DNA of 64,000 nucleotides from Amphiscolops sp. MND2022 (Eukaryota): NCBI GenBank assembly GCA_964187785.1, contig OZ076412.1, positions 47,554,001 to 47,618,000 on the forward strand. The letters run 5' to 3'. How positions within the stretch are numbered: the stretch's first letter is position 1; each line of letters opens with the position of its first letter. Below are positions 23,048 through 56,395 of the stretch, one piece after another. The notes under the pieces were generated by a model. The model was not told the DNA's origin. It worked only from the letters and a program-made list of their open reading frames with translations, and ran no database searches. The position numbers and the translations under genes were made by a program.

Positions 23048-23357
23048 TCAGACAATGAAGGTGATGAAATGGTTGTAGAAAATGAAAATCCCAGGGGAGG
23101 AAAATATAATATACATCCTAACCCTACCCCAAACTTTACTGATGAATACAGATACTAGCCAAAATATGTAAATTAAAAGCCCACAGTCCCCATCAACCGA
23201 GGTTATATATTTTAACTGGGCCCAATCTGACTGAAAATATTCATGACTGCATGGATACAATTATGCTAAATATAATAAAAACAGAAATCGAATGCAATAA
23301 TAAAGAACAACTGCGACAAGAAACAATCATAACAAAAAGAAATGAGATACAGTTCAT

Positions 23358-26484: not shown

Positions 26485-27312
26485 ATGTCTCTTCAATTCA
26501 AGATAGAAGAATATCCAAGATCCCTAGTCAGCTCAGCCTACGCTTCCTCTGATGAAGACATGGACATAGACTCAGTGACTTCGATCCAATATCAGTGGGA
26601 CAGGGAATCGGGTGATGATGACATTCAAGTACTGGCCTGTTATCACGAGAATCCACCGTTCCCCCCGCAACTTGTAGCAGGAAGGACAATGACGACCAGC
26701 CTGGCCCAATGTCTTGATGACTTGAGCTTGCCGTCAACCCATTGTAATGATACCATTGACACTTTCACCGAACCCTCAGGTGAGCTGGTCAATTGGCCGA
26801 TAGGGCACCCACCTGCAACTTATGACCATCAACCAATTGAATACCATCCAATCGCAGACTGTGGTCAACTCAACCCAGTAGTCGAGTCATCCGCTCCACC
26901 CCCTTTGATTGACCAAATGCCATCCTATCTGTACGAAAACCAGTACCAACCTGGGCACTACAACGACCAGTGGGCACGTAATACTCACATCACCGACCTA
27001 GCTATTTCAACTAGCGGTTCCTGTGGACAACCCAACGATGTGTACCACTCTGGCTGTATCGTCTGAGGCAAGTCTTTCCCAGAAATCACTGAAGAAATTA
27101 CGCTGGGATACCTAGAAGGCAATCACGTCACGGGCGAAACGTACGACCAACGGATGGAGAGGAGACGAGCGTTTCAAGCTGGTATGAAGGCAGGTTCCTT
27201 CATTTTAGTCCCCCGGGGAGTGTCGCAGGCTGCCGCCTGTGACGGCACATACTACCAGGTCACTCCAACTAATGACCAAAGCAACCCCGGACCAGGAGTC
27301 TTACCTATATAA
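26485..27312 (+). CDS. Element 1 third ORF (about 275 codons, one internal TGA) running through the PPT into the 3' LTR
   Basis: ORF 26485-27066 continues in frame after TGA 27064-27066 as GKSFPEITEE...RRRAFQAGMKAGSFILVPRGVSQAAACDG...LPI, ending at TAA 27310-27312. Confidence 0.55.
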
Positions 27313-28792
27313 AACACTCTCAAACTTTTAGAGCCTCAAAACAGTCAACTGACATTTACTTGTATTGATAAACTGATACAATATTAATTGCAAGCAATAT
27401 CTAATGTTTTACTAATTTGACCAGTAGTCATGTAGACCGTATGAAATGTTCATTGTATTTATTTGACGTCTTTCATGGTGCAAAAGGAAACACATTCTGC
27501 TATGAAAGCGTTGCAGTCTAATTGACGTGTTGTCCACCATGATCACCTACGGCGCTAATAATGATTTTAGTACACTCATGCAGTCATTGTGACGCATTCT
27601 CGTATTTTAACTTTATGTAACTAGCAGTGCTAATTAAGCTATTTGGTGCCGTCACTTTGACGTTAGGTCAACATGTTCTTTCATGCTGTTTGATTTCCAT
27701 TTGATATGGATATTTTGACGCAATGTAGCATCGCGTACATGAATTCACTAGTGATAGTTCGTAAACCATTTAAACTATTTCAATTCTAATTTTAGTGCAT
27801 TACGTAATGTGACGCAATGTATGATTTGTAGCTATTTATAGCGAATATGATGTCATGTAAAAATTTAGGTCTTTGACATTCCAAATAATGTGTGTCATGG
27901 TCCGAATACTATATATACTCGGATGCATTTGTGGATGTAATCATTGTTGATATTGCGAACGCTATTAAAACTGACAATTTGATACACTTTACCATTAGTC
28001 AATTCATTGTTGAAAATAAAACGATTTTCTTCACTATGCCTTCAACTAGAAGGCAGAAAGCTAAAGAAAAGCGAGCAAGGCAATCAGACGTAATGTCAGA
28101 TTTTGAAAACCTTGATGTTATGCTTGGGAGCTATTCTAGAGATGCTCTAGTAGAGCTAAGTAATGTTAGTGATGTAGAAAGGGACTTTGAGTCTAGTAGA
28201 CGCCAGCAAAATACTGATCTAATTGAAGGGAACCTCAGGTCACTTTTAAATGCTAATGAAAGCGAGAACAGTGAAATCACTGCAGAAACTATGAGGGTGA
28301 TTAATTCAGAAATTTCCTCCCAAATGTCTAGAAAAATAGATGAAATTAGATCTGACTTAAATTTGCAAATATTGGATGCTATTAACTCAGCAATTCAAGA
28401 AAAGGTGCTTCCTTCCATTGAAAATTCGCTAAAACCAGTTAAAACAGCTTCAAATGCAAAATGGGACCTTCGGTCAGATGGACCGCAGTCGAGCAGGGTG
28501 AATAGGCCAGACCAGCAATATGACCTGAAGTCAGGGGGACTGCACAAAAGCAAGAAAGCTCAAAGGAGCAAATACATTGACCTTAGGTCAGATGGACTGC
28601 ATCTGGACAGATTCGGCCAGGATGCTCAGGAATATGACCCTCGGTCAGATGGACTGCACCAAAGCGAAATTACGCAATCTAACCTAGAAACACGTGAAAA
28701 TCGCTCTAAAATGAGTTTTAAAGAAAGTAACCGTACCAATCATCTCAGAGAGAGTTCAATAGACTCTATTGAGAGTGAAGATGGTTACGACA
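27221..28792 (+). repeat. Element 1 3' LTR (1572 bp) containing the gag N-terminal ORF (27892-28803)
   Basis: Direct repeat of the 5' LTR, preceded by TTAGTCCCCCGGGGAG. The ORF ends just beyond the LTR at a flanking TAG. Confidence 0.97.
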
Positions 28793-32897: not shown

Positions 32898-34378
32898 TGT
32901 CGCGTTATGACTAACGCTTTAACAAACATAATTAGGTGCTAAAGTGCAGTTTATATTTAATTAACAAATAAAGAAACAAACATGAACTAGAACTAACGTT
33001 TGTTTATGGGGGAGAAAGTTGTAGATGAAGATGGCGGCCATAAGGCGGCGGCCATAACGATGGTAATAATGATGATGAAGTACTGTGACGAGAAAGGAAT
33101 TGCACAAGTGAAGAATTCTATATTATACCGCGTATATTTGAAATATGAAACCAACTATGATTGGTGAAAGATAAGCCATGCCTGCTACGCAGCGCACGAT
33201 AAGAAATGCTTGGCTGTATATATACGGCCAACGCAGGCGAGGAGATTGAGACACTTATTGAAACGGACAGAGCTTAAACTTAAAAGCTCTCGTTTCTCTT
33301 CACTTCTCTTCCACTTCTCTCCCCTCACCCCTGCTCTTCTTTCTTACTTTACCCCCTTTCCTCTCCCTTTACTATTATCTTCCCCTTCAGACTTAGAAGG
33401 TCTATTTCTCGCCTTCACATTTCAATTCAGATTTCTATTTAACTCAACAAAACTTCTTGCTTTATAACTCAGATCCAATGATTCTCTTTTAATCCTACCC
33501 TTGCATCTTAGAATATTTCTCCACTCATCCTTGATTTAACTTCAACTTCCAGAACCAATCTTCCCTTACAAGAAATTTCTAACTTAGAAATTTCTCTTCA
33601 ATCTCGTCTCCGGTTTGGTGAGTCTGACTATTTAGACCTTTCAGTAGAGATTTCACTCTCTCTGAAACTTCAACTTTAGCTATTTTCCGCTGATTTCAAT
33701 TCTGCGGTTGACAAAACTTTAACTTTGGTTATTTTCATTAGAACTAAATAGTTCTATAAGGTTGACGTTACATAAACTCACATAAGAAAAGGGATGATTG
33801 AAATTTTAAAGTGCTATATTATGAAAAAGTCTTAATGCTATTCAACTTTCTACTGAATAGAGACATCTAAATCAAAACTCTTCCGTTTAAAATAGTACGG
33901 ATTTGTAAATTTTGTTTGAGAAAAAGATTTCCGAAGAAAAAGGGAAATTCTCATTATTTGTAAATAGTTTCATTTTCTTAAATGATAAATTGTAAAAGTT
34001 ATATTACTTCTTCTTGTAAAATGAAGTTGTAATCTTTATTAATCTGAGATTTGTAACAATTGCAAGAGATATGGCCATGTCCAGAAATTGTCCACTTTCA
34101 ATATTCTCAACTCATTCGTAATTAAACATATTTATTCACCATACATTTTCAGTAAACAGGAAGCTCATTTACAACCACTGCCTTGCACGACTCACGCAAT
34201 TTCTTTTGTCCGCACGTAAGCGCAAGGCACCCCTTTATCAGTAAGTTGCAAATTTATTTGTTGGGACTTATACTTGTTAAATCAATAACAGAACCGTCGC
34301 GAGATAGTACCTTGTAAAATGCAAACAAGGACTTGACAGATTAAAACTAATAAACAAATTTCACCCATGCGTGCGACA
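32898..34378 (+). repeat. Element 2 5' LTR
   Basis: TATATATA 33217-33224, pyrimidine-rich tract downstream, donor-like G|GTGAGT at 33618, AATAAA 34349-34354. Confidence 0.97.
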
Positions 34379-34381
34379 AAC

Positions 34382-34398
34382 TGGTGCGACCAGTGAGG
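34382..34398 (+). promoter_or_regulatory. Putative primer-binding site of element 2
   Basis: TGGTGCGACCAGTGAGG lies 3 nt after the LTR end. The tRNA is not identified. Confidence 0.75.
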
Positions 34399-35415
34399 CA
34401 ACTTTTTCTCTTGTAATAGAGAAGTAAATGAGCTATCTGTTAGAATCCCTACTCTCAGAAGTAAGGGTTACTTACTTATTTCTCTTAACATTACTTCTAA
34501 TTTTCTTCTTTCTCCTACTGCCTCAATATGTGGCTTCTCTAATCTATATAAATCGTAAAACTGCTAGTAAATACTCTAACAGAATCTCTCCAGCCTAACA
34601 GCTTTGGGAAGAGTTTATGCACTACTCTCTTTCTTTCAATCCCCAAAACCATTTGTTAGAAATGATTTACCTTTACGAAAATACTATGAGATTACCATCA
34701 GTCCTAAACAAGAATGAAACTGACTCTATACGCTTTATTTAAAGGCACAGTTGGGAAATTAACTCTAGTCCGGACGGACACAAATTAAGTAAAAGCCCGC
34801 CTAGGTCTCCTCGGAGGCTGTTTGAAGGCCGTGAGCCCAGTGGGTATCTTGGAACCTATGTAGCATTCCGAGTGGGAAACCTAGTATTCTAGTGATAGTA
34901 CCCAAGTGATTGCATGATAGTGATCTGGGCCCCACGCACTTAATCCTAAAGACGAGAGTAACTCCCTCTGTGAACTAGCCGTAGTTATTTTCCTAAAGTT
35001 AAAGAAAGGCTCAACGAGCGGATGAAAGACCTAGTGGACTGACTGTACTCTTCATAGGTTTTCTTTGGGTTAACTCGGAGGATTGGTATACCCCGAACTA
35101 CCCTTTTTACGATAATCTCAACACTACTGGGATTTGTAAGTATCCCCTAAACTGTGGAATCAGAGTACGAAATATAGGAAATGAGCCTAACTTCGACCGA
35201 GAAGTGCTATTTTCATTTTTGCTAGCAGCGTATTAAGGATTTTATGATTTGTCAGACCTGTCTAATAATTATCACTATTAGAATCATAGTACAAACAATT
35301 TTTACTTTAACTCTTTGCTGTTATTCTCAAAAGCCAAGAGTATCATACCTCATAGAGTCTTTGGCTTATTGTTCTTTGCTTCATCTTCTATCCCTTATAA
35401 TCTCAATAGCTCACA

Positions 35416-36870
35416 ATGGCTGCGCAAAATTACTTGGCTTATCCAGACCTCGGCAGAGACCAATTCACAGGAACAGACCCAGATCAAGATCCTGAACAAT
35501 TTATACAGCTAATTGAAAAGAAGTTCCGTTTCTCTCATGGTGATACCCCAGCAAACGGAGCAGCACTTGACGACTACAACTTCAGGAGAAAATCCTACTT
35601 TGCTACACTACTAAGAGGACCAGCAGCGGAGTGGTTCGAGACAAGTATCACAGACGCTAACACCTGGCAAGAAATCAGAGAAAGGTTCATCACAAGATTC
35701 GCAGATGGCCGAAATAAATTCAGACACAGAATGGAAGCAGAACATGTCACCAGAAGAGATGGAGAAGAGATAAAGAATTTTCTACACAGAATCAAAATTG
35801 TTGTGGGGAAAGGCTGGCCAGATGATCTTGCCGGCGTCGCACAAAACGACAGAAACGCAGAAAGAGCAGCACAAGACCGACAAAGAAGACAAAGGTGCAT
35901 CGACTACTCACTGAGAGGCCTAAGACCTCCAAAACTGAGAGAAAAGGCACACGAATATTTAATGGATCACCCGAATGCAACCTGGGAACAATTCTCCCAA
36001 GCTGTAATAAACAAAGACCTCTCCTACACGGTAACTACCGCCCTAACTGGCGGAGAATCACATTCAGACCCACTCATACAAGAAATGCGAGACGACCTGA
36101 AGGGAATCAAACTACAAATCAAAGAACAGATGAATAACACAATCAACGCAGTAGAGAAAACTGTAGACCCTAATGCTACAGGTCGAAGAATGGCCACACG
36201 ATTCTGTGGCTACTGCCGAACAAATGGGCACACACCTAACTGGTGCAGAAAGAAGATGAGAGATGAAGAAGTGAAGAAGGTTCAAAACGAAGCTAACCCA
36301 GAAAGAAGAATAACATTCACCAACGACTACAACAAAAGAACTGGACCTGAACATGGCTCTAGATTTCAACCAAGATTACCAGATTCAGAAATCAGAAAAC
36401 ATATGGCTGTGGCACATCAACTAGCACTGGCTGGAGCTATGCAGTCAAACCCTGCCTGGAATCAATACGATAGACCACAAAGAAAAAATTTCAACCCAGA
36501 ACGCCGACCTACGAATACAAGAGTCAATCCTGGTAACCAAAGATTTTCACAAGAAGGGAGAAGACCCTTCCTAAACAATTCTAACAACTCCAGAAGTGTT
36601 TCCCCTGGACCCCAAAGAGCAAGATCTCCGTTCAACTTCAACAGAGACCAGTCTAGCTCCTTTAATCGCAACATACAACCTCTTCCACCAAGAAATAACT
36701 CAGGTTTTCAAAGACCACTAGACAGAAACGAAAGACCCAACACTCCAACTCAATCTTACGAGCAAAGATTCCCAAAAACTAATGACATAGGAAGATCCAA
36801 CACAGTACAGTTCTTAGAAACCGACTACTCGGTGAACTCTATTGCCGATTTCCGCCCTTTAAACTACTAA
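35416..36870 (+). CDS. gag: Element 2 Gag (484 aa)
   Basis: Retrotransposon-gag motif LLRGPAAEWF...WQEIRERFITRF, zinc knuckle CGYCRTNGHTPNWC, and a basic N/R/P-rich C-terminus. Confidence 0.92.
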   Translation: MAAQNYLAYPDLGRDQFTGTDPDQDPEQFIQLIEKKFRFSHGDTPANGAALDDYNFRRKSYFATLLRGPAAEWFETSITDANTWQEIRERFITRFADGRNKFRHRMEAEHVTRRDGEEIKNFLHRIKIVVGKGWPDDLAGVAQNDRNAERAAQDRQRRQRCIDYSLRGLRPPKLREKAHEYLMDHPNATWEQFSQAVINKDLSYTVTTALTGGESHSDPLIQEMRDDLKGIKLQIKEQMNNTINAVEKTVDPNATGRRMATRFCGYCRTNGHTPNWCRKKMRDEEVKKVQNEANPERRITFTNDYNKRTGPEHGSRFQPRLPDSEIRKHMAVAHQLALAGAMQSNPAWNQYDRPQRKNFNPERRPTNTRVNPGNQRFSQEGRRPFLNNSNNSRSVSPGPQRARSPFNFNRDQSSSFNRNIQPLPPRNNSGFQRPLDRNERPNTPTQSYEQRFPKTNDIGRSNTVQFLETDYSVNSIADFRPLNY

Positions 36871-36948
36871 GGTCTCCGAAAAATAGAAATAGCAGCAGTG
36901 CCCCTCTAAAATTTAGTCTTAATCTTTATTATTTTGCTGCCGGAGACC
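36858..36948 (+). promoter_or_regulatory. -1 frameshift signal: T_TTA_AAC, 6-nt spacer and stem-loop
   Basis: Heptamer 36858-36864. GGTCTCCG 36871-36878 pairs with CGGAGACC 36941-36948, and inner GCAGCA 36892-36897 pairs with TGCTGC 36935-36940. The -1 frame is open through the protease LLDTGATSS (36981-37007) into ORF 37113. Confidence 0.88.
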
Positions 36949-39900
36949 CACAAAAAGATAGTGGCTTAGAAATCGAATTTCTACTAGACACTGGGGCAAC
37001 ATCTTCAATCATCAACTACAGGACCTTTAGAGAACTTTGCCAGTTTCAACAAGACCTAGAACTTAGTAGAAGCAATAACACAACACGGAACTACTCTGGG
37101 CAGATCATCCCTATGATGGGATACATCACCCTCAAACTCTACTACGATTCCGATGGACAACATAACTTCCCATTAACAGTCTGGATAACAGAGATGAAAA
37201 CCCAAAACCTCCTGGGAATGAATTTCTGCCAAGAACAAGTTAACAAAATACACTTTGATCTCCCTGGCATAGAACTCAAAAGACTTATAAATACTTTCTG
37301 CTATGGTAGCCTACAACTCAACAAATGTTACCCCTATATATCACAAATTCTCTCAGTCAGAATTCCTCACTCAATGTATATCGAACCAAAGACGACAAGA
37401 TGTTACAAATTCGCACCAGAAAACACTAATAACTCATTTCCTCCTGGATCTACGTTCCTACCGAACAGGAAGGCAGTTTCTACTGGACTTAACTTCATAA
37501 ATGTCCTCTGCACACGATTTGAGAAGACTTTACCAATCGTCATGGAAAACAACAAAAACCATACAATCACCTTAGTAAAAGGAACTATCGGATACTCAAT
37601 GCTTGACGTATTAGACCAAGAAATTCCGAAATACCAAATTAGAAACCCGACAGAACTCGCATATGCTATCCTAAACGAAAACGAAGAATACAACGACTGT
37701 TTCCTATTACACTCTACCATTCCTTCACAAGATATGAACGATTGCCTCAGAATAGAAGGAGGAAACTCGAAAACAATACTCAGCAGACCAGACCCTATCA
37801 TCATCTTCGTCCCGGCCGACCTAAAGCCAGCCAAAGGCTTCTCAAAAGAAATCCTAACGAAAATACCTTCACTTAAGGATACATGCGCAAAACAGAAACC
37901 ACAGAAAGGAGAAACCATACCCTACTGGGACGAAACTCTGAAAAGATTTATATATGTTCTGATTACGAAAGCAAAATCAAAAGACAAGATTGACCCACAA
38001 TTACTAGTTCAATCTCTCGAAACTCTAAAAGCACACGCCAAAATGAGCGGCATCAAAACTATATCCATGCTACGGGAAGCCTCAGAGCTAGAAGACTTCC
38101 AATGGCAAGACGTCACTCAACTCATTCAAGACGTATTTGCATACTCAGAAATACAACTCCGAATTTATACAAGAAACGAACTAGATGTCTATGCCATGAC
38201 TACAAGAGGAGACCCCGAATACGTACTAGAAGATGAGATACAACAATTTTCCGAGCAATTTCATCTCAAACATAGAGAGCTGGAGACAGACTTCACAAGC
38301 GACGCAAAGTCCTGTCAACCACCCTGCGATGAGCAATTTAAAATCTTCAGGCCAAAAGAAGACAACGAACGACTGATCGAGTACTACCTTCAGTATCAAA
38401 ATAAAGAAGCAGTGCGATACATTAAAGAATTCGACTTTCGCTACTCAGACCTCACAGACGAAGAACTGGTTCTCCTAATAGACTTACTAATGGACGCAAG
38501 AGATGTATACTCCCAACACAAATTTGACGTAGGGAAAACCAGACAAAAATTTAACATTAAACTAGAACCTGGAGCAATTCTAAAGAGACAGAGACCCAGC
38601 AAAGTACCACTTCACCTACGAGAAAAGCTAGAGAAGCTACTCACACAACTCAAAGACGCTGATATCATCAGAGAAATGGGCGACGATGAAGAAATGGGAT
38701 CCTTATTTGTGAATCCTATTATACTACAACCAAAACATGACTATGTCAAGCTGATCATAGATGCGAGATATCTAAACTCGGTGACAGATCTAACAAATTA
38801 TTCCTGGCCCTTAGAACCGATCCAAACCATAATGACACTAATAAATGGAAACATCTTCTCAGTAAGTGATCTCTCCTGTGCATTTCACCAAGTCCCATTA
38901 GACGAGCCCACGCAAAAACTCACCAGCTTCATCATTGGCGGAAAACAATACACCTTCACCAGGGGATTCTATGGACTCAAGGGATTACCAAGCTTCTTTA
39001 GCAGAATGATGACTATCCACTTCGAACCCCTCATCAAAAGGAAACAGGCAATTACATACATCGACGACACGTTGATGCAAGCCAAAAACAAACAAGAAAT
39101 GTTCACGGTAATTCAAGAATACCATTACTTACTGCGGAAAGCCGGACTCAAGGCAGCACCAGATAAGACACTCTTCTTCTTAAGGAAAGTCAAGTTTTTG
39201 GGACACGTGATAGCAGCCGAAGGAATACAACCCGTCGCAAAACGAGTAAAAGACCTACACAATCTCAAATCACCAAAGACCAAAACCGAAGTGAAAAGCT
39301 TCTTAGGAGCTTTGGGCTTCTATAGCTGCTACATCAAGAATCTTCATGTAGATAGTCGACCTTTTTACGAACTCACCAAGAAAGATACAAATGTTTGCTG
39401 GAACCAAGAACACGAAGACCTTTTCCAGGAAATAAAGAAAAGAATTACCGAAGACACAGTGCTCGCAATACCCTCGACAAAATACCCCTTTCACATACAC
39501 GTCGACTCGTCAAACGTTGGGACAGGATGTATCCTCATCCAACAATTCCCAGAAGGGAAACGGATCATTTCCTTCAACTCAAGAGTTTTCGCAAAGGAAG
39601 AACAAAAGATGTCCACACTACACAGAGAATTATGTGGCATAGTCTCAGCTCTTCAGACGTATGAACACTACATCATCGGATCTCCCTTCCCCATCTATCT
39701 ATACTGCGATCACAAGCCGATTCTTTATCTCTGGGGAAGAAAGGGACAAATTTCACCCCGTTTTTTTAGGTACCAAGTAATTATATCTAAATTCCCGAAT
39801 CTCAAGATAATTTGGACTCCAGGAAGCAACCTAGCCTTCCCTGATATACTCAGTCGAAACGTCTCCATCGAGGAACACAAGAAACATCAACTCAGTCACA

Positions 39901-42368
39901 AAGTCATCCCAACTGACATACACTTTTTCGACGAACATGGAACCCAAGTACACTACAAAATCAAACACGAAGAAAATGAAGAGACATCCAAGAACGACTT
40001 TTACCCCATCTTGTACGAGAAGGGAAAAGAACGGAAAGTACTTCATCTCCAAAATGATGGGAATAACTTCACAGTTAACTCTATCTACGAGGAACCTAAC
40101 CTGCCGAAAGTAGAGTCAGCACAGAGTTGCCTCGACGCTGGAAGAGAACTTGGAAAATTCGAAGAACTAAGAATCAGGTCAGGAACACGGGATAGCACTT
40201 CGGATTTATCACAAAACACTTACAGCTCCATCAACAGTGATACGGATGACGAAGCCCTCACAGACAATCAGAGTCAAGAAATAAACGAGACCAACTACGA
40301 GCTCAACACAGAAGATCCCATCGCACGTAACCCAAGTCTTCCCAAAAACGCGAAGGCAATAGAACACCTCGATCTACCTACAAATTCAACTGAAAAACAA
40401 AAGACACCAACACAGGAACTTGTCAGACAACTTGATAAACTATCCAAAGAAGTAGAACTAAACGTTACAACGATCTTACAAGAACAAATAAATGACCCGG
40501 TACTCAGCGTGGTCAGACAATGGGCAAGAACAGGAAACAAACCCGAACCAAAATCACCAGAGTTACAACACTCAAAAGGCCTCATGCGTTACTTTCAGGA
40601 ATTCGACAGATTATCTATAGAAGGCCAAGGAAACCTCCTCTGTTATAACGAGCCAACTGATGACCCAACAGACGAGAATCTGAGAATCTGTCTACCTCTC
40701 TCTCTATTTTTAGCTTGCTTTCGTATGGGACATTACAACGACCTCGGCGGCCACATGGGAGCAGAAAAGACCTTCCTCAATGCTAAGAGATTTTACTACT
40801 GGCCAGGGATGCACAACTGGATCTGAGCCCTAACACAAGATTGTGTTAGCTGCCAATCTAACAAATCCAAACAACGGAGAAACAACGAAGTCCCACTGGA
40901 AGACTGCGAAACCGAAACTCAAGTATTCAGAACCATCCACATTGATCACAAAGGACCACTCAATCCTCCCAGTCGTGGAAATTCACATTGCCTTCTGATC
41001 ATCGACGCCTTCTCACGTTACCTGATGGCATACCCAGTCAGAGACACAGGAGCACAATCTACAATCAATGCGATGGAAAAATGGATTATGCACTATGGCA
41101 TCCCTCAATCTATCGTACATGATAGAGGAACAGCTTTCGTGAACACTGAATTCGTCAATTGGACTAAAGAGTTTGGCATTACACTTCGACCAAGAACCGC
41201 ACACTCACCCTGGACAAATGGCAAAGTAGAAACTCAAAATCAACACATTGCAAGATACTGGAGAAACTTCCTAAACGAATCAGGAAACAACTGGGCCCAA
41301 CTAGCTGCCAAATTTGCATTCGCCCACAACACAAGCGTCAACTACACGACTGGAAAGTTCCCCTACGAGATAGTGTTTTGCAATAAACCACTGATACCTA
41401 TGAGTCTGAAGCTGGGACTCTACAGGAACAAAAACAAGAACTGCAAATCACAATTCTGTCAAGGATTACCTCCTCATTGCCATAGCAAAAACCAAGTCAA
41501 AAACGAACTACTAAATGGACTATTACGACCACAACTATCACAAAGCTTATTGGAACGAGAAACAGCCTTCAAAAAGGTCTACTCATCCACATATGAAAAG
41601 TGCAGAAAACAAACAGCTCAATCACACGCCTACAGGAACAGATTTAAACTTGGGAACCACCTCAACATTGGACAAAAGGTTCTGCTAGAGAACCATCGAA
41701 AAGACCTCTCCAAAAGCCAAAAACTCCAACAACTGCGACTAGGACCCTTTACGATTACCAAACGAATTACAAATACAACTTACCAAATAATGGAAGATCA
41801 AAACCCCGAGAATCTCCGAACTGTACATAGGAACCATCTAATAGAATACTTTCCTAAAGAAGAAACACTCCCCCCTCTTATCGAAGAATACACTACTCCC
41901 CACCGTGGAGACACGGATTTTTATAACAATCTTGTCAAAGGAAGAATTGAACAACTTAATGTTTCAGAACCACAAAAACTCGGAGACCTCTGCATATTGC
42001 CAGTACGGAATCAACAAAACCAAATACTTGCCCGCAAAAGAACGCAAACCCCCCAGAGCACAGACTCTGGTATCATCTCTCCAGAAAATCAGTTGTTGTC
42101 AACTCCCAAGACTCCCGATCAGCCTTCGACATCACATCCTCAAAACGCAGCAACCCCTATCCTGACGTTAACTCAACGTCAACCAACTCCAGCACCCCCA
42201 ACTAACACCCCGGCATCGTCTACCAAGTCAACGACTCCCTTGCAAGAGTTACGAAAGGCTGTTGCCCGCCAAATAGAGAGAAATCCACGTTATCAGCGAG
42301 CACAACCCAATCAACCAGCACGACAGTCCATACTTCGTGAAAGGACTAGAATTGGTTACAAAGAATAA
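36864..42368 (+). CDS. pol: Element 2 Pol: protease, dUTPase-like remnant, macrodomain, RT, RNase H, integrase; one in-frame TGA at 40824-40826
   Basis: DTG (PR), YIDDTL (RT), HVDSS...RELCG...YCDHKP (RNase H), HMG...DCVSC plus IDHKG / HDRGTAF / VETQN (IN). ORFs 37113 and 41025 are in the same frame, separated only by the TGA. Confidence 0.95.
37770..38170 (+). other. TARG1/OARD1-like macrodomain embedded in Pol between PR and RT
   Basis: RFIYVLITKAKSKDK...SLETLKAHAKMSGIKTISM...FQWQDVTQLIQDVFAYSEIQLRIY parallels human OARD1 RYIYYLITKKRASHK...SLEAMKSHCLKNGVTDLSM...[24 protein letters not shown] (recalled sequence). Confidence 0.85.
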
Positions 42369-42375
42369 AGTTACT

Positions 42376-42639
42376 ATGCCGTGCCATAAAGTCTATCTAA
42401 ACTTGCCTTGGCAAGTCCCGCGAGAACTCCAGTCCTTAGGAATTCTGCAGGTTACGATTACTAAAATCTACTGGACCTACAAAAACAAAATAGTTAGAAT
42501 TTGTTTCTACTCCAACGACCCAGATCCTAGCCCACATAAACAACCTACGCCTAGAAAATCTAACCTTCATATACACCCAGAATCACCTACTTTCGCCTGC
42601 TTATATCAACACAGCCTATTATGCCGTCACCCACCATGA
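42376..42639 (+). CDS. Hypothetical 87-aa ORF immediately after pol
   Basis: ATG 8 nt after the pol stop, with the same A/C-rich sense bias as the element's genes. No homology recognised. Confidence 0.35.
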   Translation: MPCHKVYLNLPWQVPRELQSLGILQVTITKIYWTYKNKIVRICFYSNDPDPSPHKQPTPRKSNLHIHPESPTFACLYQHSLLCRHPP

Positions 42640-42929
42640 CCCTATCCTAGAGGAACTACTATCCTACATGCCTACCCTGATACCTGACCTACAACCTTCA
42701 TTACCTAACACACAAAAAGACTTATTCTGCTGTTCTACTATCTCCTCGCCTAGCTCCTAGCCGGATATTACCGCTTATTCGAAAAAAAAATATTATCTTT
42801 ATTATTATTATTATTATTAGACTTTTTATCTATACAATTTGTGCAACCCCGAGAAGGAACTTACGAAAAGCAGCAAACACAAAAGCGTAGAAAAATAAAG
42901 TATTTCCTGGAGATGAGAGGCAATAATGC

Positions 42930-43625
42930 CTACTCAATCTCCAGGAAACCTCCCTTCTCTGCAAGTCGCCGCAGCTGAGCCGCCCGCTCCCCCATTGTCC
43001 ACAATGAATAGAGGCGGGTCCACTGACCCCTCTCAAAACTAGTCAGCTGCGAGTAGCCACTTATGTAGGCTCGCAGCTGGAAGACGACTATTTCGCCGAG
43101 AGAGGACAGGAGAGTCTGCTCCCAACGGGCCCCCCAGTTAGCCCGCAAGAAACTAGTTAGAGCATTTGGACCGGGAGGCCCAGAAACAGAAAACCCGGGG
43201 GTACCCTGAAGGGAACTAGTTAATGAAGCCCAGTTTTCTAGGCGGTCGATATCCCTATGGGTAAATAAACCCATAAAACTTTGATCCCCCGGGCTCTCCA
43301 AAACACCCTGCGAGATGGTAGAGGGAGCTTGCGGAAAAGGGCCACTAGTCCTCGGGGCCACAAACGCCACAAAAGACCCACCCCCAGAGGTCCCTGCCTG
43401 AGAACCTGATGACGCGGGAGCAGAAGAACTGGTGCGCGCTCCGCTCGACGAGGACGGCCCAGCTGACGACGACGATTGTGGCGGCAAAGAGGTAGCGGCA
43501 GTGCCCGACACAGACCCTGGAGCAGTAGTCTCCTCATCGGTCGAGGATTCTTCGTAATAGTCGCTATAGTTGTTGTTGTTGTTGTTGCTCATCCCTAAAT
43601 ACAAATTTGATTTATTTAAAGTCAT
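42930..43625 (-). CDS. Antisense accessory ORF of element 2 (220-231 aa; S/G/P-rich N-half, W-rich helical C-half)
   Basis: Intact ORF in a locally GC-rich island. Minus-strand TATAAA 43639-43634 upstream of ATG 43592, and minus-strand AATAAA 42803-42798 downstream. Confidence 0.65.
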   Translation of the reverse strand: MTLNKSNLYLGMSNNNNNNYSDYYEESSTDEETTAPGSVSGTAATSLPPQSSSSAGPSSSSGARTSSSAPASSGSQAGTSGGGSFVAFVAPRTSGPFPQAPSTISQGVLESPGDQSFMGLFTHRDIDRLENWASLTSSLQGTPGFSVSGPPGPNALTSFLRANWGARWEQTLLSSLGEIVVFQLRAYISGYSQLTSFERGQWTRLYSLWTMGERAAQLRRLAEKGGFLEIE

Positions 43626-44087
43626 GCAAAATGTTTATAATTATTGATCGAAGTCAACCATATATGTATCACTATTCAACTTAGTCATCAGATATAAAAT
43701 ATAATATCCTACCCGGACATTTGTCTAGTTTACTACGACGACTCATGAAGTCGTAATCCTCTCTCCTCTACAAATACCCCCAAAAACGCAATGAAATAAC
43801 TGATGATTCCATTCTCAGATTTGCTATGTTTGATGCACACACGCCACAAGGCATAACAGCTCACTGATGATCATAATATTCAAAATTGACAACCGACTTT
43901 CCCAGATAACTGATATTCAGAAGGAACCCTCAACACAGAACATAATCATACAAGCCTAAGCAATCGCAGAAGAAGAGAGTGAAACCTACACGTGTGTGCC
44001 AGCATCACCTATCTACCCACTACTGGAGAGTCTACTATATAATAACACACCTACCGAAGTCTTCACAAGAGCCAAGTCAGTCCTTTA

Positions 44088-44483
44088 ATGTCCTCTCCCG
44101 CAGTTGCCGTATTTCGAGGAAATAAGTACTACTTCCACACTCAATTTCAACCTCCGGTTCCTTGGAAACCCATACAACTCACGGGTGAATACGAAATACA
44201 GTCAATCTTTTACGAGATCACTACCTCGGCGATACAAGTCCGTATACTCACACCAGAAGACAAAGAAGCACTTGTCCTCTTCCCTATTCACTTCGGGTCC
44301 AAGGAATACGCCTACCTATTCCTATCGTTCCAACAATACATACTCCAACACCCCGCCGTCCTTAAAGACAAGGCTTTCGACGACTTGGTTTATTTTATGG
44401 ATATCACCCTAGTAACTAACCCCTTTGAAGAAGAGGTTAGAATCAAATATCTTCACACCCTAGTTGAGACCTATGATGTTTAA
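44088..44483 (+). CDS. Hypothetical accessory protein (131 aa)
   Basis: Intact ORF with globular-looking composition. The ATG overlaps an upstream TAA (TAATG 44086-44090). Confidence 0.55.
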   Translation: MSSPAVAVFRGNKYYFHTQFQPPVPWKPIQLTGEYEIQSIFYEITTSAIQVRILTPEDKEALVLFPIHFGSKEYAYLFLSFQQYILQHPAVLKDKAFDDLVYFMDITLVTNPFEEEVRIKYLHTLVETYDV

Positions 44484-44817
44484 AATACAACTCAAATTCC
44501 TCTGGCGTCACCCGGAAACAAACACACTTCTTGAGATCCTCTCTATAGCCTGGAAAGAGAGCGCCCCCGCACTTCAGATTGAACTCCACAGCCTCCGACC
44601 ACATCAAACGGGACATTGGCTCATCCCTGTCGCCACAGACTCGACAGAAGCAGCAGATCTTGCGAAGGCGCTAACCGACTACAGGGAGATCGCTTACTTA
44701 GATCACGTTCACCCTCTGACCCTTCATCTCCTCAGCAAGTTAATCGATTTCCTCGACGCTCAGAGACGTAACAAACACTCTCCCAGTCTAAAATCAATCA
44801 GTGATAACTACAGCTGA
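44473..44817 (+). CDS. Hypothetical accessory protein (about 114 aa)
   Basis: ATG ATG at 44473/44476 overlaps the end of the previous ORF. Intact reading frame. Confidence 0.5.
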   Translation: MMFKIQLKFLWRHPETNTLLEILSIAWKESAPALQIELHSLRPHQTGHWLIPVATDSTEAADLAKALTDYREIAYLDHVHPLTLHLLSKLIDFLDAQRRNKHSPSLKSISDNYS

Positions 44818-44876
44818 ACCTTCACAGATGGTTGAAGTTAGTTTCTTTTACTATTTTTCTTCGGGCACTCTTTGAA

Positions 44877-45298
44877 TAGTAGTGAGGTTACTACTATAAA
44901 ATTTTAACCTCCGCTTAGTGTCGTGCCAGCTAAGCTGCCGGTTTGATATTACGGCTTGCCTTTTTACGGCCTTATTTCAGGATCCATAACATTAAACTAA
45001 ACTAAAAGACAAATAAACTTCTCCTTCTCTTAGGTACGTGTGAACAGTAGTGAGGTTACTACTATAAAATTTAAACCTCCGCTTAGTGTTGTACCAGCTA
45101 AGCTGCCGGTTTGATATTACGGCTTGCCTTTTTACGGCCTTACTCCGAAACCTATACTTTAAACAAAAAAACAACAATCTTTCCATAAGGCACTTTCCAA
45201 TAGTAGTGAGGTTACTACTATAAAATTTTAACCTCCGCTTAGTGTCGTGCCAGCTAAGCTGCCGGTTTGATATTACGGCTTGCCTTTTTACGGCCTTA
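44877..45298 (+). repeat. Three spaced copies of a 98-nt structured element (44877-44974, 45045-45142, 45201-45298)
   Basis: Copies 1 and 3 are identical and copy 2 differs at 4 nt. Each copy has TAGTAGT/ACTACTA, GAGGTT/AACCTC, GCTTAG/CTAAGC and GCCG/CGGC complementary pairs. Confidence 0.92.
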
Positions 45299-45366
45299 CC
45301 GTGGATCCACATATCTATAAAGAACATTTTTCCTGATTGATTGTCAAAGACTGAAGAATTTCAGAA

Positions 45367-47514
45367 ATGAAATTATTTTACTTACTCTTTTTATGCGCCC
45401 ATTACGCGCCCGTTGTGATATTACAACGTCCAACGCCAAACCTCGCTAGCGTTGCTAAAAAACTGCGAGTAACTCATTTCGACTGCGGCGAAATGACCCA
45501 AAATAAACTCTACGCATTGAATCAAGTTGAACAATGCAATGTGGCACCTGAAAACTTAGAGGTAAGTCGTGCGAGCGTAACGTTATACACTAAACATTTC
45601 CGCCGCACTATCAACGCCACTATGTGCCGTGTGAAACATCAGAGTGAAGAATGGCATTGTGGTTATCACGACCACTCCAGTATGTCAATCCTACACGACG
45701 GAATCACCAACGATCTTTCCCTGTCACCCGAAACCTGCAAGGCAATGGGTGAAGGCAAAGAAGTCATAATCCATGGACAACCCCTCAAATTTAAGAAAGG
45801 AGTGAAACAAATACAGACGAGAAACGCCAAATACGGAAAGAGTTGGGACGGTGTACGCGACCCAGATACCCGAAATGAATGCAAGACAGGTGGCTGGATC
45901 AAAAGAGAAACATTCGAATCTCACATCCAAGATGCTGAATTATCAGTAAAAACTCGAGATGGAAAAGTCCTGACTCCGTTTCAGATGGTCCTTCCCTGCC
46001 CCTTAGAACAACTAGGTTGCGAAACGACGTCACTGGACCCATACGCCTACACATGGGCGGAGCCCGATAATTGCGTGCTTGCAGTACATAGGAAAGAAAT
46101 CGTGAACATGATCAAACACGGATCTAACTACTATATTGTAAGCGGCAACGACTCCACTACCAAATTTTTATTCGAAGTCTACAACAGACCACAAAAGTAT
46201 TGCAACAAACCAGACGATGTATACCCGACCAACTACGAATCCCTGTACGTTTCAATCCAACTTGGTGGCTTCGACATGACGTCCGGCAGACGACTCGGCA
46301 TCTCCATGGGAGAGACATCTAAACTACAATATTATTCACCCGAAGATGGTTCTGGTAATGGCCGAATCCACCTCTTTTGAGGCCCGAGCGACCCCAACCC
46401 TAATACACCTCATTACCTCAACATGGATTACGAGTTACACCAAGGGACAAAGCTTGATTATCTCTTCTTTGAGAGCACTCGTCTCCTCGAAGCTTCAGAA
46501 ATCCAGCTCCTCAAAGCACAATGCGAACAAGAAAGAACTCAAATCCTTACTATTTTGATGCTATCAATGGAAAATCCTCGCCTCGCCGGATACATGCTCA
46601 CGGGAAATCGCTCAATGTTCCTGAACACAGATGGCAGCCTCGCTTGGCTCTACCACTGTCCGGAATCCCACTCACCTCTTCACACGATGAACCGATGCTA
46701 CGACCGCATACCCATCTTCTACAAAGGAGTGGTTGCCTTCGTGGACCCAATCACCCGACAGACCTATCCTAACGCGAACGCCCAAAATTGCAGCGATCGC
46801 ATTAAGAACCTCTTTCAATTGGATATGGAAGACAAAGACTCCTGGTTTACCCTCACTCCTTCACCCGAACATCGCGACCGACCTGCTATCTTCGGACCCA
46901 AAGACATACAACCAATGATTACTAGATCCTTCCCTGGTTCACAAGACGCGGGAATGTACACGCCTAAACAACTCTCAGAATTTTGGGACAACATCCTCAT
47001 CAGCGCAGCGTCTCGCAACGCCCTCCAGAAGTTCTCACGAGAGCTCATCACACCCTCAATGGCCCATAGTGGACCTGAATCATTCGCGTATTATGCACCC
47101 CGTACCGATTTTTATGTTGACGGCATGATATCACCCGGTTACTTCAAAAATCAGTTCCTTGAAACATTCGGAAGTATATCTTACGTACTAGAACTTTGCG
47201 GCGCGTATTTTGGCGCCTTTCTTTTCATTAAGTTCGTAATAGATATCACGGTACTCGTCTTCCGATACTTTGAACTTCGTCACCTTACAGGTAATACACT
47301 GAGCTTCACTAAAACATTGCTCAGTGCTTCGTACAATCTTTTCTTTACCTCAGTTTTAACTTCTGTATTCACCCCGCGGGCCCCTTACGAGGATAGCGTT
47401 GAAGATAAAAACGCGAAAACTGAAGATAATGGAAAAGAAGTAGAACTCCAAGCACTGAAGAATAAGGAAGAATCACTTTATCCCTCAGTACAGAGCTTCG
47501 TAGCTCCAATATAA
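45367..47514 (+). CDS. env: Envelope glycoprotein (about 715 aa), class III (herpesvirus gB / chuvirus G-like) by motif; one in-frame TGA at 46378-46380
   Basis: Signal peptide MKLFYLLFLCAHYAPVVIL, N-terminal FDC...C...TMCRV...WHCG pattern, Cys-rich ectodomain, C-terminal TM (VLELCGAYFGAFLFIKFVIDITVLVF). ORFs 45367 and 46423 are in the same frame. Confidence 0.85.
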
Positions 47515-47560
47515 AGCCAAAAACATTTTCAAGTTCATTCATTCATTAGTTTACTTTTAG

Positions 47561-48142
47561 AATCTAGAACCACTATTCGACCTACCAAGCCTGGACGACG
47601 ATACCCTGGATCCTATCCCAGAAAGTGACCTAGAAATCGAACCACTATCTCCTTCAGACTTTTTGACACCAGACTCGTCTACAACAATTACCTTTCTTCC
47701 AGACCCTCCTGACTCAACGGTCCCATCATCACCCTCAAAATCTCCAACTCCAACTTTCACACCTACGCCATCCGACCAACTCCCCTTTCCTTTGTCATTC
47801 ACAGGAGACATACCACCAATCCCGTCCGCACAACATCCTCCTAGATTTGGTGGAAAGGACATCAGAAGAAACACACCACAAAAACACTATTACGAATGGA
47901 ACAACAAGATAGCCGATGAAGCACCCTTACAGAAGCAACATAAAAGGGAATACTTCACTAGAAGAGCCAGATACGTTAAAAAACCTAGATTTAACGCGAA
48001 CCTAAAGTATTCTCTACTCCCACAGTTTTCAACCTGGAAAATCGTCTTTTGGGACAACAAAAGACAAGAATACACTATTGAGAACCCTGCACTGAAGGGA
48101 CAGCGGCTGACAGTTCCCTTAAGATCCATATCTGCACAATGA
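47561..48142 (+). CDS. ATG-less ORF (about 193 aa; acidic then P/S/T-rich then basic) starting at a splice acceptor
   Basis: The frame is open from 47561, immediately after TTACTTTTAG (47551-47560). No upstream in-frame ATG. Confidence 0.5.
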   Translation, partial: NLEPLFDLPSLDDDTLDPIPESDLEIEPLSPSDFLTPDSSTTITFLPDPPDSTVPSSPSKSPTPTFTPTPSDQLPFPLSFTGDIPPIPSAQHPPRFGGKDIRRNTPQKHYYEWNNKIADEAPLQKQHKREYFTRRARYVKKPRFNANLKYSLLPQFSTWKIVFWDNKRQEYTIENPALKGQRLTVPLRSISAQ

Positions 48143-49076
48143 GCCAAAAATTAAACCCAAATGCCACCCCCTTCATCCCAAAACACAAACCCTACCTACC
48201 GATCCCTAACCCCGACTGGCCACCTATGCCTGAAGAAAACGATCAAGAAGAACATGCAAACCTCGAAGGAGTGGAAAGACTAAATATGTGGATTAGTGAA
48301 TGGGAGAAATCAACTAGTACCTATAACCAGGGAACAAAAAGCACACCGCTTCGAAAGTCCTTCCCTTTAACGGACATTAATCAACCCCAAAAGAAGTTAG
48401 AAAACCGAATCAAACTGCTATGTACCTCAATCGAAGAGGCACGAGATAAACGTCAACAATTGGAAGTCACTATCTTCGATTTGCGAGCGACAATCAAACA
48501 CCAAAGCTCCCTCCTCAGCAGAGCGAGCCAGATTGAAGCGAACGGTAAAGATTTTATCACTTGGCAAGTTTCCGCCTTCTCCACACTTTACCGAAAAGCA
48601 AGGACCTCTCCAGACGATCCCTTTCACAACATCAAAAACAGCTTCGCGAGCCCTATTTACCCAACATACCTATCAGGCTGCAAAATTTCCTTCAGAATAT
48701 TCCCTTACGGGATAAACATCTTCCGTGGGACCCACTCTTCTATTAGCTGTGAACTTCATTATAGCGACTTCACTCACCCACAAACATGGCCCTTTGATAA
48801 AACAGTAGAAGTCGAAATACTTGATCAGAAGGACGAAGGCAACAAGTGGTCCACACTTTTCCCAATCAACCCCCACAACCACGAAGATATCTTCACAATC
48901 TCTACACGCACCCGAACCTCCTCAAAGAAGACTTCATCCCTCATACGAAGTTACTTGTCAACTTCAGAGAAGCATTCCTAAACAATGACTCTATAATATT
49001 TAGAATCAAATTTAAAAAACCTTCCCCTAAGTCACTCTCCCTACATAACTCCCCCTCCTTTCAGTCTGACCCATAA
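48139..49076 (+). CDS. PAM2 motif + coiled coil + TRAF/MATH domain protein (1-nt frameshift at about 48860-48930)
   Basis: N-terminal KLNPNATPFIP (PAM2-like), heptad segment LENRIKLL...LRATIK, then ITWQV...FASPIY...KISFRIFPYG...GTHSSI...WPFDKTVEVEILDQ. The MATH end DFIPHTKL...FLNNDSIIFRIKF is in the -1 frame (ORF 48846-49076). Confidence 0.85.
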
Positions 49077-49101
49077 CTCATTTATTTTCTTTCATCCTGC
49101 C

Positions 49102-49113
49102 AGGGGGGTGAGC
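49102..49113 (+). promoter_or_regulatory. Polypurine tract of element 2
   Basis: AGGGGGGTGAGC directly before the 3' LTR. Confidence 0.8.
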
Positions 49114-50594
49114 TGTCGCGTTATGACTAACGCTTTAACAAACATAATTAGGTGCTAAAGTGCAGTTTATATTTAATTAACAAATAAAGAAACAAACATG
49201 AACTAGAACTAACGTTTGTTTATGGGGGAGAAAGTTGTAGATGAAGATGGCGGCCATAAGGCGGCGGCCATAACGATGGTAATAATGATGATGAAGTACT
49301 GTGACGAGAAAGGAATTGCACAAGTGAAGAATTCTATATTATACCGCGTATATTTGAAATATGAAACCAACTATGATTGGTGAAAGATAAGCCATGCCTG
49401 CTACGCAGCGCACGATAAGAAATGCTTGGCTGTATATATACGGCCAACGCAGGCGAGGAGATTGAGACACTTATTGAAACGGACAGAGCTTAAACTTAAA
49501 AGCTCTCGTTTCTCTTCACTTCTCTTCCACTTCTCTCCCCTCACCCCTGCTCTTCTTTCTTACTTTACCCCCTTTCCTCTCCCTTTACTATTATCTTCCC
49601 CTTCAGACTTAGAAGGTCTATTTCTCGCCTTCACATTTCAATTCAGATTTCTATTTAACTCAACAAAACTTCTTGCTTTATAACTCAGATCCAATGATTC
49701 TCTTTTAATCCTACCCTTGCATCTTAGAATATTTCTCCACTCATCCTTGATTTAACTTCAACTTCCAGAACCAATCTTCCCTTACAAGAAATTTCTAACT
49801 TAGAAATTTCTCTTCAATCTCGTCTCCGGTTTGGTAAGTCTGACTATTTAGACCTTTCAGTAGAGATTTCACTCTCTCTGAAACTTCAACTTTAGCTATT
49901 TTCCGCTGATTTCAATTCTGCGGTTGACAAAACTTTAACTTTGGTTATTTTCATTAGAACTAAATAGTTCTATAAGGTTGACGTTACATAAACTCACATA
50001 AGAAAAGGGATGATTGAAATTTTAAAGTGCTATATTATGAAAAAGTCTTAATGCTATTCAACTTTCTACTGAATAGAGACATCTAAATCAAAACTCTTCC
50101 GTTTAAAATAGTACGGATTTGTAAATTTTGTTTGAGAAAAAGATTTCCGAAGAAAAAGGGAAATTCTCATTATTTGTAAATAGTTTCATTTTCTTAAATG
50201 ATAAATTGTAAAAGTTATATTACTTCTTCTTGTAAAATGAAGTTGTAATCTTTATTAATCTGAGATTTGTAACAATTGCAAGAGATATGGCCATGTCCAG
50301 AAATTGTCCACTTTCAATATTCTCAACTCATTCGTAATTAAACATATTTATTCACCATACATTTTCAGTAAACAGGAAGCTCATTTACAACCACTGCCTT
50401 GCACGACTCACGCAATTTCTTTTGTCCGCACGTAAGCGCAAGGCACCCCTTTATCAGTAAGTTGCAAATTTATTTGTTGGGACTTATACTTGTTAAATCA
50501 ATAACAGAACCGTCGCGAGATAGTACCTTGTAAAATGCAAACAAGGACTTGACAGATTAAAACTAATAAACAAATTTCACCCATGCGTGCGACA
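49114..50594 (+). repeat. Element 2 3' LTR
   Basis: Same length as the 5' LTR with one visible substitution. AATAAA 50565-50570. Confidence 0.97.
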
Positions 50595-55800: not shown

Positions 55801-56064
55801 ACATGTAAAACTTCACAAAGATTTTGATGTTTTTATAGCCAGCGATTTAAATTGGCCTATTCATGTACAAATTCAGCTCAATAAAGCTCAAAGGCCTTTT
55901 TCCTTCTCAGGTATCGGACCCCTTTTAATACTCCCTCCAAAACAAAGCTGAGTTTATACACTTCTATGGTGTTATCCATTTTCCTCTATGAAACTCCTGC
56001 TTGGCATTCTGATGTGGCGAGGATAAGAGAATTGGAAAAATTTCAAAGATCCTGTTTCCGTTGG
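52839..56064 (+). mobile_element. Decayed CR1/L2-clade LINE (ORF1 remnant, APE endonuclease, RT), cut at 56064 by element 3
   Basis: ORF1-like RLGRK...RPRPIEVLF; APE LDILLITETW, GGGVAV, SDH; RT NYRHISLL, FDKVPH, GVPRGSVL, LFADDLKL; thumb region EKFQRSCFRW ends abruptly at TGTCGG. Many stops and frameshifts. Confidence 0.9.
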
Positions 56065-56395
56065 TGTCGGAACGTGCACTAGTCTTATCGATAGCGGTAT
56101 TTTGATCGTTCCCTTCTCCGTGACTGGAGGATAACTTTTCCGTTAAAGCTAATACTAGTCCAGTAAGCTCATTAATTTGTCTATTCATACTCGAGAAACG
56201 TTGGTCAATCGTCATTTGATCAGAGTGTTGTTCAGAATGAATGAGGTTTTCATTATCTAATTCATCAATTTGTTCTCTTGTGAGGAGGTCGGGAGTACTG
56301 CATTCACTTTCGGAATCACTAACACGGTCATTTCTACCTGTTTTACCCATGAATACTGGGATGGAACTACTTGCCTGAGATCGTGTATTTACCAT
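55964..56395 (-). CDS. LTR-encoded Gag N-terminus (110 aa) running out into LINE sequence
   Basis: MVNTRSQAS...IDQRFSSMNRQINELTGLVLALTEKL (coiled coil)...SARSD at the LTR end, then 33 more codons from the flank. Same architecture as element 1. Confidence 0.6.
   Translation of the reverse strand: MVNTRSQASSSIPVFMGKTGRNDRVSDSESECSTPDLLTREQIDELDNENLIHSEQHSDQMTIDQRFSSMNRQINELTGLVLALTEKLSSSHGEGNDQNTAIDKTSARSDTNGNRIFEIFPILLSSPHQNAKQEFHRGKWITP

Follow-up and report, generated by a model that had tools for sequence, protein, structure and literature searches.

The window analysed here is a stretch of 64,000 nucleotides from Amphiscolops sp. MND2022 (assembly GCA_964187785.1, contig OZ076412.1, positions 47,554,001 to 47,618,000 of the forward strand), and positions are counted from its first letter. 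On its plus strand, from 32898 to 50594, lies a 17.7-kb Ty3/gypsy-type element, delimited by two long terminal repeats (LTRs), which carries an extensive set of accessory genes and a tandem array of structured RNA units. A preliminary description, made from the letters alone, had proposed a full kit beyond gag-pol-env, and the antisense open reading frame (ORF), the small ORFs, the ORF without ATG, the MATH/TRAF-C ORF and the three RNA units are all present. For comparison, we used eleven sister copies (family A), a close variant (A') and the families B, C and D; the genomic searches covered 1.07 Gb of sequence, the window included. Relative to family A, the identity of the N-terminal half of env is 90-96% in B, 70% in C and 54% in D, and that of the TRAF-like protein is 57%, 33% and 22-26%, respectively. 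The order x, antisense gene, o73, oA, oB, RNA units, env, oC and TRAF is shared by families A, A', B and C, and family D retains the antisense gene, small ORFs, env, oC and TRAF.

The 5' LTR (32898..34378, 1481 bp) and the 3' LTR (49114..50594), both on the plus strand, have TG...CA ends, are flanked by a 4-bp target duplication and, when aligned, differ at 1 of 1481 positions; the single difference had been noticed in the preliminary description. The primer-binding site lies at 34382..34398 (+) and the polypurine tract at 49102..49113 (+). A 14-base motif of the primer site has 337 exact matches in the searched sequence, compared with 1 for the control, and a pattern search for the primer tRNA gave no matching tRNA gene. 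The 5' LTR contains a splice-donor-like site near 33618, whose motif is retained in 5/5 stretches of families A', B and C, and an AATAAA close to its 3' end. A segment of about 49 bp (33665-33736) is tandemly expanded in other copies, whose LTRs consequently range from 1481 to 1823 bp. An ORF inside the LTR was considered as a gene and rejected, being long in only one of the eleven sisters.

The repeat ends, the target duplication, the primer-binding site, the polypurine tract and the order protease-reverse transcriptase (RT)-RNase H-integrase in pol are features of the Metaviridae. Pfam detects Retrotrans_gag, a protease, RVT_1, RT_RNaseH, Integrase_H2C2, rve and SH3_Tf2-1 in the ORFs of the element, and no Pao peptidase family is listed. 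Neither the retroviral RT lineage nor the class I Env that characterize the Retroviridae was found. Among solved structures, the RT/RNase H is nearest to that of Ty3 (E 3e-29), followed by foamy virus (2e-22) and MLV-type enzymes (3e-17), so that the likeness to complex vertebrate retroviruses previously suggested for this element holds for its organization but not for its lineage.

The family has multiplied very recently, as the preliminary description had supposed. Its 6.9-kb accessory region has at least 12 full-length matches at 99-100% identity, the window included, and this is a lower bound because 23 of 553 candidates were scored. LTR pairs, measurable in six of the eleven sisters, differ by 0-6 substitutions per ~1578 bp, and each copy has its own 4-bp duplication. 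The near-identical copies, the LTR pairs, the individual target duplications and the count of primer motifs indicate that the family is young and that the accessory region is no single capture peculiar to this copy; the eleven sisters carry it at 99% identity, and its gene order recurs in A', B and C.

In the window copy, five genes carry lesions: in-frame stops in pol (40824-40826), o73 (43957-43959) and env (46378-46380), and frameshifts in x and, near codon 250, in TRAF. The accessory and env frames among these are open in 10-11 of the eleven sisters. The accessory region of this copy differs from those of its sisters at 7-10 positions per kb (the median between sisters is 5.6), compared with 0.7 per kb between its own LTRs. 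The contrast between nearly identical LTRs and a more diverged accessory region suggests that an already damaged template was copied; the window copy is a defective genome and was most likely produced in trans. Programmed read-through of the env stop was also considered and rejected, the frame being open in 11/11 sisters.

The gag gene (35416..36870, +) matches Retrotrans_gag (Pfam, E 1.7e-5), and a CCHC knuckle can be read in its translation. It overlaps a putative -1 frameshift signal (36858..36948, +), composed of a slippery heptamer and a downstream stem (fold z -2.06); the heptamer and the stem ends are retained in 8/8 loci of families A' to D. The pol gene (36858..42368, +) encodes protease, macrodomain, RT, RNase H and integrase. 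The macrodomain (37740..38175, +), already recognized in the preliminary description, lies between protease and RT and is TARG1/OARD1-like, according to its match to PDB entry 4j5q (human OARD1/TARG1, E 1.7e-11); the Pfam search gave no match for it. TARG1/OARD1 hydrolases possess a catalytic Lys and Asp and a Gly-rich diphosphate loop. The Lys is retained in families A to D, and the Gly-rich loop GCGLD is changed in A to C and partly retained in D. The macrodomain of the window family probably acts in binding and not as a hydrolase. A protein search for a macrodomain in pol returned only two proteins, each 68% identical.

The env gene (45367..47514, +) encodes a fusion glycoprotein of the chuvirus/gB class, with 715 amino acids in the sisters. 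Pfam family PF24664 (Monjiviricetes fusion glycoprotein) is found in both halves (E 1.8e-10 and 1.9e-21), a sequence search against the PDB gave no match, and the protein has one C-terminal hydrophobic peak. Its dN/dS between families A and B, calculated pairwise by the Nei-Gojobori method as for all values below, is 0.04-0.05. A multi-copy element with a chuvirus/gB-like glycoprotein beside a gypsy pol belongs to the errantiviruses in their wide, gB-type sense; the narrower definition based on insects does not apply, as no RxK/RR furin motif and no F-type Pfam family were found.

Eight accessory frames, namely the uORF, x, the antisense gene, o73, oA, oB, oC and TRAF, are under purifying selection, as judged from dN/dS values spanning 0.01-0.25 between families A and B. 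The first, a 56-residue transmembrane upstream ORF (uORF; 34428..34598, +; hydropathy peak 2.6), lies just 3' of the primer-binding site and was absent from the list of the preliminary description; it has 56 residues in A, A', B and C alike and a dN/dS of 0.13-0.25. Small fusogens of the sORF2/FAST type are marked by an N-myristoylation motif (MGxxxS/T), a transmembrane helix and a polybasic tail; the uORF has the helix and a few basic residues, lacks the motif and is not counted among them. Downstream of pol lie x (42376..42760, +; 128 residues in the sisters, open in 10/11; dN/dS 0.06-0.11), o73 (43867..44088, +; 73 residues in the sisters, open in 11/11; 0.01-0.02), oA (44088..44483, +; 131 residues; 0.07-0.08) and oB (44473..44817, +; 114 residues; 0.05-0.09). 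The stop and start codons of o73/oA, oA/oB and oC/TRAF overlap, and an acceptor-like motif near 43818 precedes o73 in 29/30 loci. The proposal of at least three small unfamiliar genes is confirmed by x, o73, oA and oB, which are under selection. Family A is so little diverged that open frames there alone prove little, which would fit an accessory region of captured host or junk DNA, carried as a neutral passenger by a young family. This explanation, to which we assign a very low probability, is contradicted by strong purifying selection across families whose synonymous sites are near saturation, by the order conserved over four families and by the covariation of the RNA described below.

Profile comparison indicates that oA and oB are paralogues: hhalign gives this pair 93.7% (E 1.9e-7), with reversed controls at most 0.7% (0.6% for the same pair). 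The x protein, linked to oB at 71% and to oA at 48%, is a probable third paralogue, and the three would together represent one orphan fold, to which two ORFs of family D are linked at 10-26%. No such link to oA/oB was obtained by profile comparison for o73, D72, oC or the antisense protein. The AlphaFold2 model of oA, based on a mixed alignment of candidate paralogues, predicts a beta-sheet plus helices (pLDDT 83, pTM 0.80). Fold searches with this model gave a best Z of 4.3 in the PDB, none reaching 5, and nothing at E <0.001 among viral models, which does not in itself establish a new fold, and the ESM Atlas gave no usable match. A profile search of 1.84 billion proteins produced 26 unnamed matches, and the 19 inspected resemble the same lineage.

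The antisense gene (42930..43625, minus strand), as the preliminary description had indicated, is present, open in 11/11 sisters and under selection (dN/dS 0.17 for one pair, the other being saturated). In 6/6 loci, it is the sole open frame of the six, and the other five carry 3-15 stops. The N-terminal half of its product is predicted to be disordered, acidic and Ser-rich, and the C-terminal domain to be folded and helical (pLDDT ~90 over residues 120-220). Pfam assigned the protein to no family, and its C-terminal domain gave no PDB match at Z >=5 and no viral model at E <0.001, with the same limit on any claim of a new fold. A second exon homologous to it occurs in family D, where 6/6 loci gave profile matches (E 1e-4 to 0.07, out of 300 fragments); both loci read also have a minus-strand GT-AG intron that keeps the phase. 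This exon and intron provide good indirect evidence for a genuine antisense mRNA.

Downstream of env, oC (47561..48142, +; 193 codons; dN/dS 0.06) lacks an ATG and encodes an acidic, Pro-rich stretch followed by an Arg/Lys-rich one. It opens exactly at a pyrimidine-AG acceptor-like site in the 5/5 loci of families A to C viewed, and family D provides it with its own ATG. These features are consistent with the splice-dependent ORF that had been proposed. The last gene (48139..49076, +) encodes the TRAF-like protein foreseen in the preliminary description, with a PAM2-like N-terminus and a TRAF-C MATH domain (dN/dS 0.17-0.19). Pfam shows MATH (E 1.2e-9) and, below the cut-off, PAM2 (E 0.008), and neither the RING nor the zinc fingers of canonical TRAF ligases. 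MATH scores above the cut-off in families A, C and D, and the PAM2-like N-terminus is found in A to C. In the PDB, the protein matches TRAF5 (E 3.6e-6) and also TRAF4, and its middle segment aligns with the TRAF2 coiled coil.

Between oB and env, three tandem copies of an RNA unit of about 110 nt lie on the plus strand (44864..44974, 45033..45142 and 45189..45298), in accordance with the triplicated structured element of the preliminary description. In each unit, an H-type pseudoknot is accompanied by three hairpins, one of which pairs through its loop with the five bases at the 5' end and so forms a second pseudoknot. In copy 2, the 5'-end/loop pairing has changed on both sides. Covariation was evaluated in 19 distinct units, selected by hand with near-duplicates excluded (46 were listed and 16 first aligned): 97.3% of the cells are paired and seven pairs have two-sided changes, a result matched by 0/500 shuffles, while slid controls reach at most 57%. 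The 5'-end/loop pairing is concordant, in one of two forms, in 98/107 units, and most of the others are wobble-compatible or mixed. The G-U pairs favour the plus strand as the structured one. The core pattern of the unit has 286 matches in the searched sequence (0 for the control), with 1-4 units per element, and no matches in viral or in metagenome contigs. An Rfam search over the units gave no match at E up to 5, an absence that does not by itself disprove a function as ribozyme, internal ribosome entry site (IRES) or exoribonuclease-resistant RNA. Family D has 2-4 tandem hairpin units of its own before env (L030 3550-4130, L035 3540-4150), unrelated in sequence to the unit of A to C; no Rfam match was obtained over this spacer.

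The unit is also retained in non-autonomous satellites. Eight of these were characterized, six of 6.2-6.8 kb and two of 8.9 kb, with family A LTRs (0-6 substitutions), 4-bp duplications and 3-4 RNA units in 8/8, and neither gag nor pol. Their layout is LTR, a fused uORF/integrase-tail ORF, y, RNA units, env and LTR (L057-L062, L019, L020, L076-L090, L093), where y is a stand-alone MATH-like gene (182 residues in 7/8), and env is intact in the 8.9-kb type and a remnant in the 6.5-kb type. Matches to y revealed 18 further loci, of which 14 are of the satellite type, 13 of them with an RNA unit, and four represent different contexts. In 12 of these 14 loci, the two without a pattern match being left out, 24 units of older satellites have a median identity of 95% to autonomous units, compared with 75% for the flanking oB tail and 82% and 76% for two env remnants. 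Selection thus holds on to the unit in copies whose env is dead. This speaks against a role restricted to env and in favour of one in cis on the RNA of the element.

A function as an IRES or translation enhancer for env would agree with the position of the unit, directly before the env ATG in all A to C loci examined, and with the different structured tandem unit that family D has at the same place. We consider it improbable, given that satellites with a decayed env hold the unit at about 95% identity and that the frame right behind the last pseudoknot closes ahead of env. Somewhat less unlikely is a processing or stability element, either a nuclease block or a self-cleaving RNA, from which a sub-genomic env RNA or a small non-coding decoy would be set free, in place of a signal on the full-length RNA. 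Tandem nuclease-resistant RNAs exist in RNA viruses, the 5'-most bases of the unit are clamped by a downstream loop, 1-4 tandem copies are tolerated and a T-run stands behind most units; the Rfam result speaks against it, and these elements, which visibly multiply, would have their genomic RNA severed by self-cleavage. To a cis signal, acting in the export, stabilization or packaging of the long RNA, we give about even chances.

Some loci have other arrangements. Two autonomous-type elements of family C (L027, L028) carry y as an extra accessory gene, placed after an acceptor-like site in the interval from the antisense gene to o73. L063 and L064 are a head-to-tail array of an LTR plus an inverted segment from o73 to the unit. 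L091 and L092 contain an inverted pair of MATH-like genes around a TRAF-like gene, an arrangement that recurs at several places in the searched sequence with no primer site or unit and may be either a different mobile element or a cluster of the host's own. A kinship between x and y was discarded when an early link of 44% dropped to 13% and y turned out to be MATH-like.

The RING-less TRAF-like protein and the lone MATH domain of the satellites may be decoys for host TRAF/MATH signalling, a suggestion that we rate somewhat below even odds. The accessory genes could instead be real and serve the replication of the element itself, in assembly, RNA handling or membrane passage, with none directed against immunity. 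The location of the macrodomain inside Pol with an altered loop fits this explanation, neither x/oA/oB nor the antisense protein resembles a known immune fold, and there are precedents in invertebrate gypsy elements: CERV in RNA export (PMC10309623) and sORF2 in cell-to-cell passage (PMC11952523). It is less easily reconciled with the divergence between families A and D, where identity falls to 22-26% in TRAF and 27-29% in the macrodomain but is 74-80% in RT and ~54% in env, a fast evolution often seen in host-facing proteins, or with the satellites, which have lost the rest but in which a MATH gene stays open. On this evidence, we regard a purely replicative role of all the accessory genes as unlikely, though not markedly so.

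Considering together the architecture, the recent multiplication, the selection on eight frames, the covariation of the unit and its retention in satellites, our interpretation, with a probability of about 0.7, is that a Ty3/gypsy lineage of recent activity, equipped with a chuvirus/gB-class env, has independently reached a complex-retrovirus-like gene expression. One LTR transcript would serve as genome and as Gag message, and Gag-Pol would be made through the -1 frameshift. The LTR donor would be spliced to the acceptors before o73 and oC, the overlapping stop and start codons could couple the translation of o73-oA-oB and of oC-TRAF. By these two means, the small proteins, Env, oC and TRAF would be made, and a separate minus-strand transcript would produce the antisense protein. 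The basic oC is the best candidate for a Rev/CERV-like partner of the RNA unit, although we hold this particular assignment to be rather unlikely.

Several findings weigh against this interpretation. The candidate donor inside env for an upstream exon of oC is present in 29/30 loci of A and B, 0/2 of C and 0/8 of D. Between A and A', dN/dS values of 1.77 for oB and 0.83 for TRAF show no constraint, on only 7-8 changes. The covarying changes of the unit stem from few events, mostly in family C, and the unit of A to C is absent from family D, its model giving nothing credible in 12 stretches of D. The satellites share descent, so that retention does not amount to many independent events; their y gene could need the unit in its 3' untranslated region, and homology-driven recombination at repeats is a further caveat on this retention. 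A more far-reaching proposal, in which the element is an undescribed infectious complex member of the Metaviridae, independent of vertebrate retroviruses, with a Rev/RRE-like pair formed by a basic splice-dependent protein and an RNA of a new double-pseudoknot class, a spliced antisense regulator, orphan paralogues, TRAF decoys and a helper-satellite system whose satellites retain just the RNA module and a MATH decoy gene as host-facing cargo, seems doubtful to us.

Complex retroviruses include HTLV-1, with HBZ and Rex, HIV, with Rev/RRE, and HERV-K, with Rec. By analogy, not homology, they share with the present element an antisense gene, several splice acceptors, a basic splice-dependent protein and a structured cis RNA, and they differ in RT lineage and env class. 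In the literature covered, to which most subscription papers and the Repbase, Dfam and GyDB collections did not belong, we found neither a macrodomain in a gypsy pol nor a matching architecture. The papers compared below were accessible in part, and what is said of them refers to those parts. Env proteins of the gB type are widespread in invertebrate Ty3/gypsy elements (Chary and Hayashi 2026, "ancient errantiviruses", PMC13524379), which share with the window element the Ty3/gypsy gag-pol-env order, the chuvirus/gB-like env, multiple copies and recent activity; the window element has in addition about 3 kb of genes in the interval from pol to env and a further two downstream of env. The first-pass filter of that survey tolerated a pol-env spacing of no more than 1 kb and regions no longer than 10 kb; with a gap of 3 kb, elements of the present type would tend to escape it. 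The words macro, TRAF and accessory are absent from its main text, as are five acoel-related terms from its 7 supplements.

In the planarian gypsy elements Burro/GYPSM1, a MATH/TRAF-C domain, encoded in one species by an accessory ORF of its own, occurs together with an env related to mononegavirus fusion proteins, and a role in meddling with the host has been proposed for them (PMC6431247). The combination of modules of which the preliminary description knew no earlier account is accordingly unmatched, within the literature covered, in its full architecture but not in its association of MATH/TRAF with such an env. Burro has a single polyprotein of ~5000 residues that includes BIR, ankyrin and BCL2 and in which env stands between gag and pol, whereas the window element has separate ORFs, env after pol and, by Pfam, no BIR, BCL2 or ankyrin; its small separate genes, antisense gene, macrodomain and RNA unit array go beyond Burro. 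In Cer1 of C. elegans, the spliced accessory protein CERV is needed for the export of unspliced RNA (PMC10309623), which offers a possible model of how oC and the RNA unit might work together; Cer1 has one accessory protein. The sORF1/sORF2 of the Drosophila MDG1 group (PMC11952523) are small, and one is transmembrane with basic residues behind the helix, like the uORF; that group lacks env, and its MGxxxS/T motif is missing from the 56 residues of the uORF. Plant Retand elements (PMC11963269) also have a long region from pol to the 3' LTR, antisense ORFs, tandem arrays and non-autonomous relatives, but they belong to a plant lineage and have a TRP28 domain and no env named, while the antisense protein described here has no Pfam family. 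Oikopleura Tor elements (PMC4402516) are gypsy-like and bear env, some with a pol-env spacer that holds an internal promoter, and no accessory gene set is noted for them. The ORF3s of rotifers (PMC5408684) are a partial precedent.

Other features were observed in the window and in family D. A second, unrelated Ty3/gypsy element occupies 15273-28792, with 1573-bp LTRs at 99.0% identity, a weak dUTPase-like match between protease and RT, a 333-codon antisense ORF (23441-24442) and a long ORF starting within the LTR. From 56000 to 64000, GC skew is reversed and GC raised, which suggests another minus-strand element; this region gave no match to proteins of the two gypsy elements. An ORF with a Peptidase M16 C-terminal domain (2050-2676, E 3.9e-12) is probably part of a host gene, and two inverted 16-bp tandem arrays (7495-7639 and 8492-8638), about 1 kb apart, resemble DNA transposon ends. 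In family D, a 73-residue hydrophobic ORF lies well 3' of the TRAF gene, in two subfamilies (L030 9333-9554, L035 9311-9532).

The element is an unusually complex variant of env-bearing Ty3/gypsy, whose most distinctive components are the RNA module retained by satellites, the orphan paralogues and the antisense gene. It shows how far invertebrate Ty3/gypsy elements can approach the organization of complex retroviruses. The unit is a compact covarying RNA without an Rfam family, whose retention in satellites points to an essential role in cis, and oA and the antisense C-terminal domain are two confidently predicted protein domains without a close solved fold. The RING-less TRAF/MATH proteins, in turn, could reveal a host immune pathway that watches retrotransposons in the host animal.

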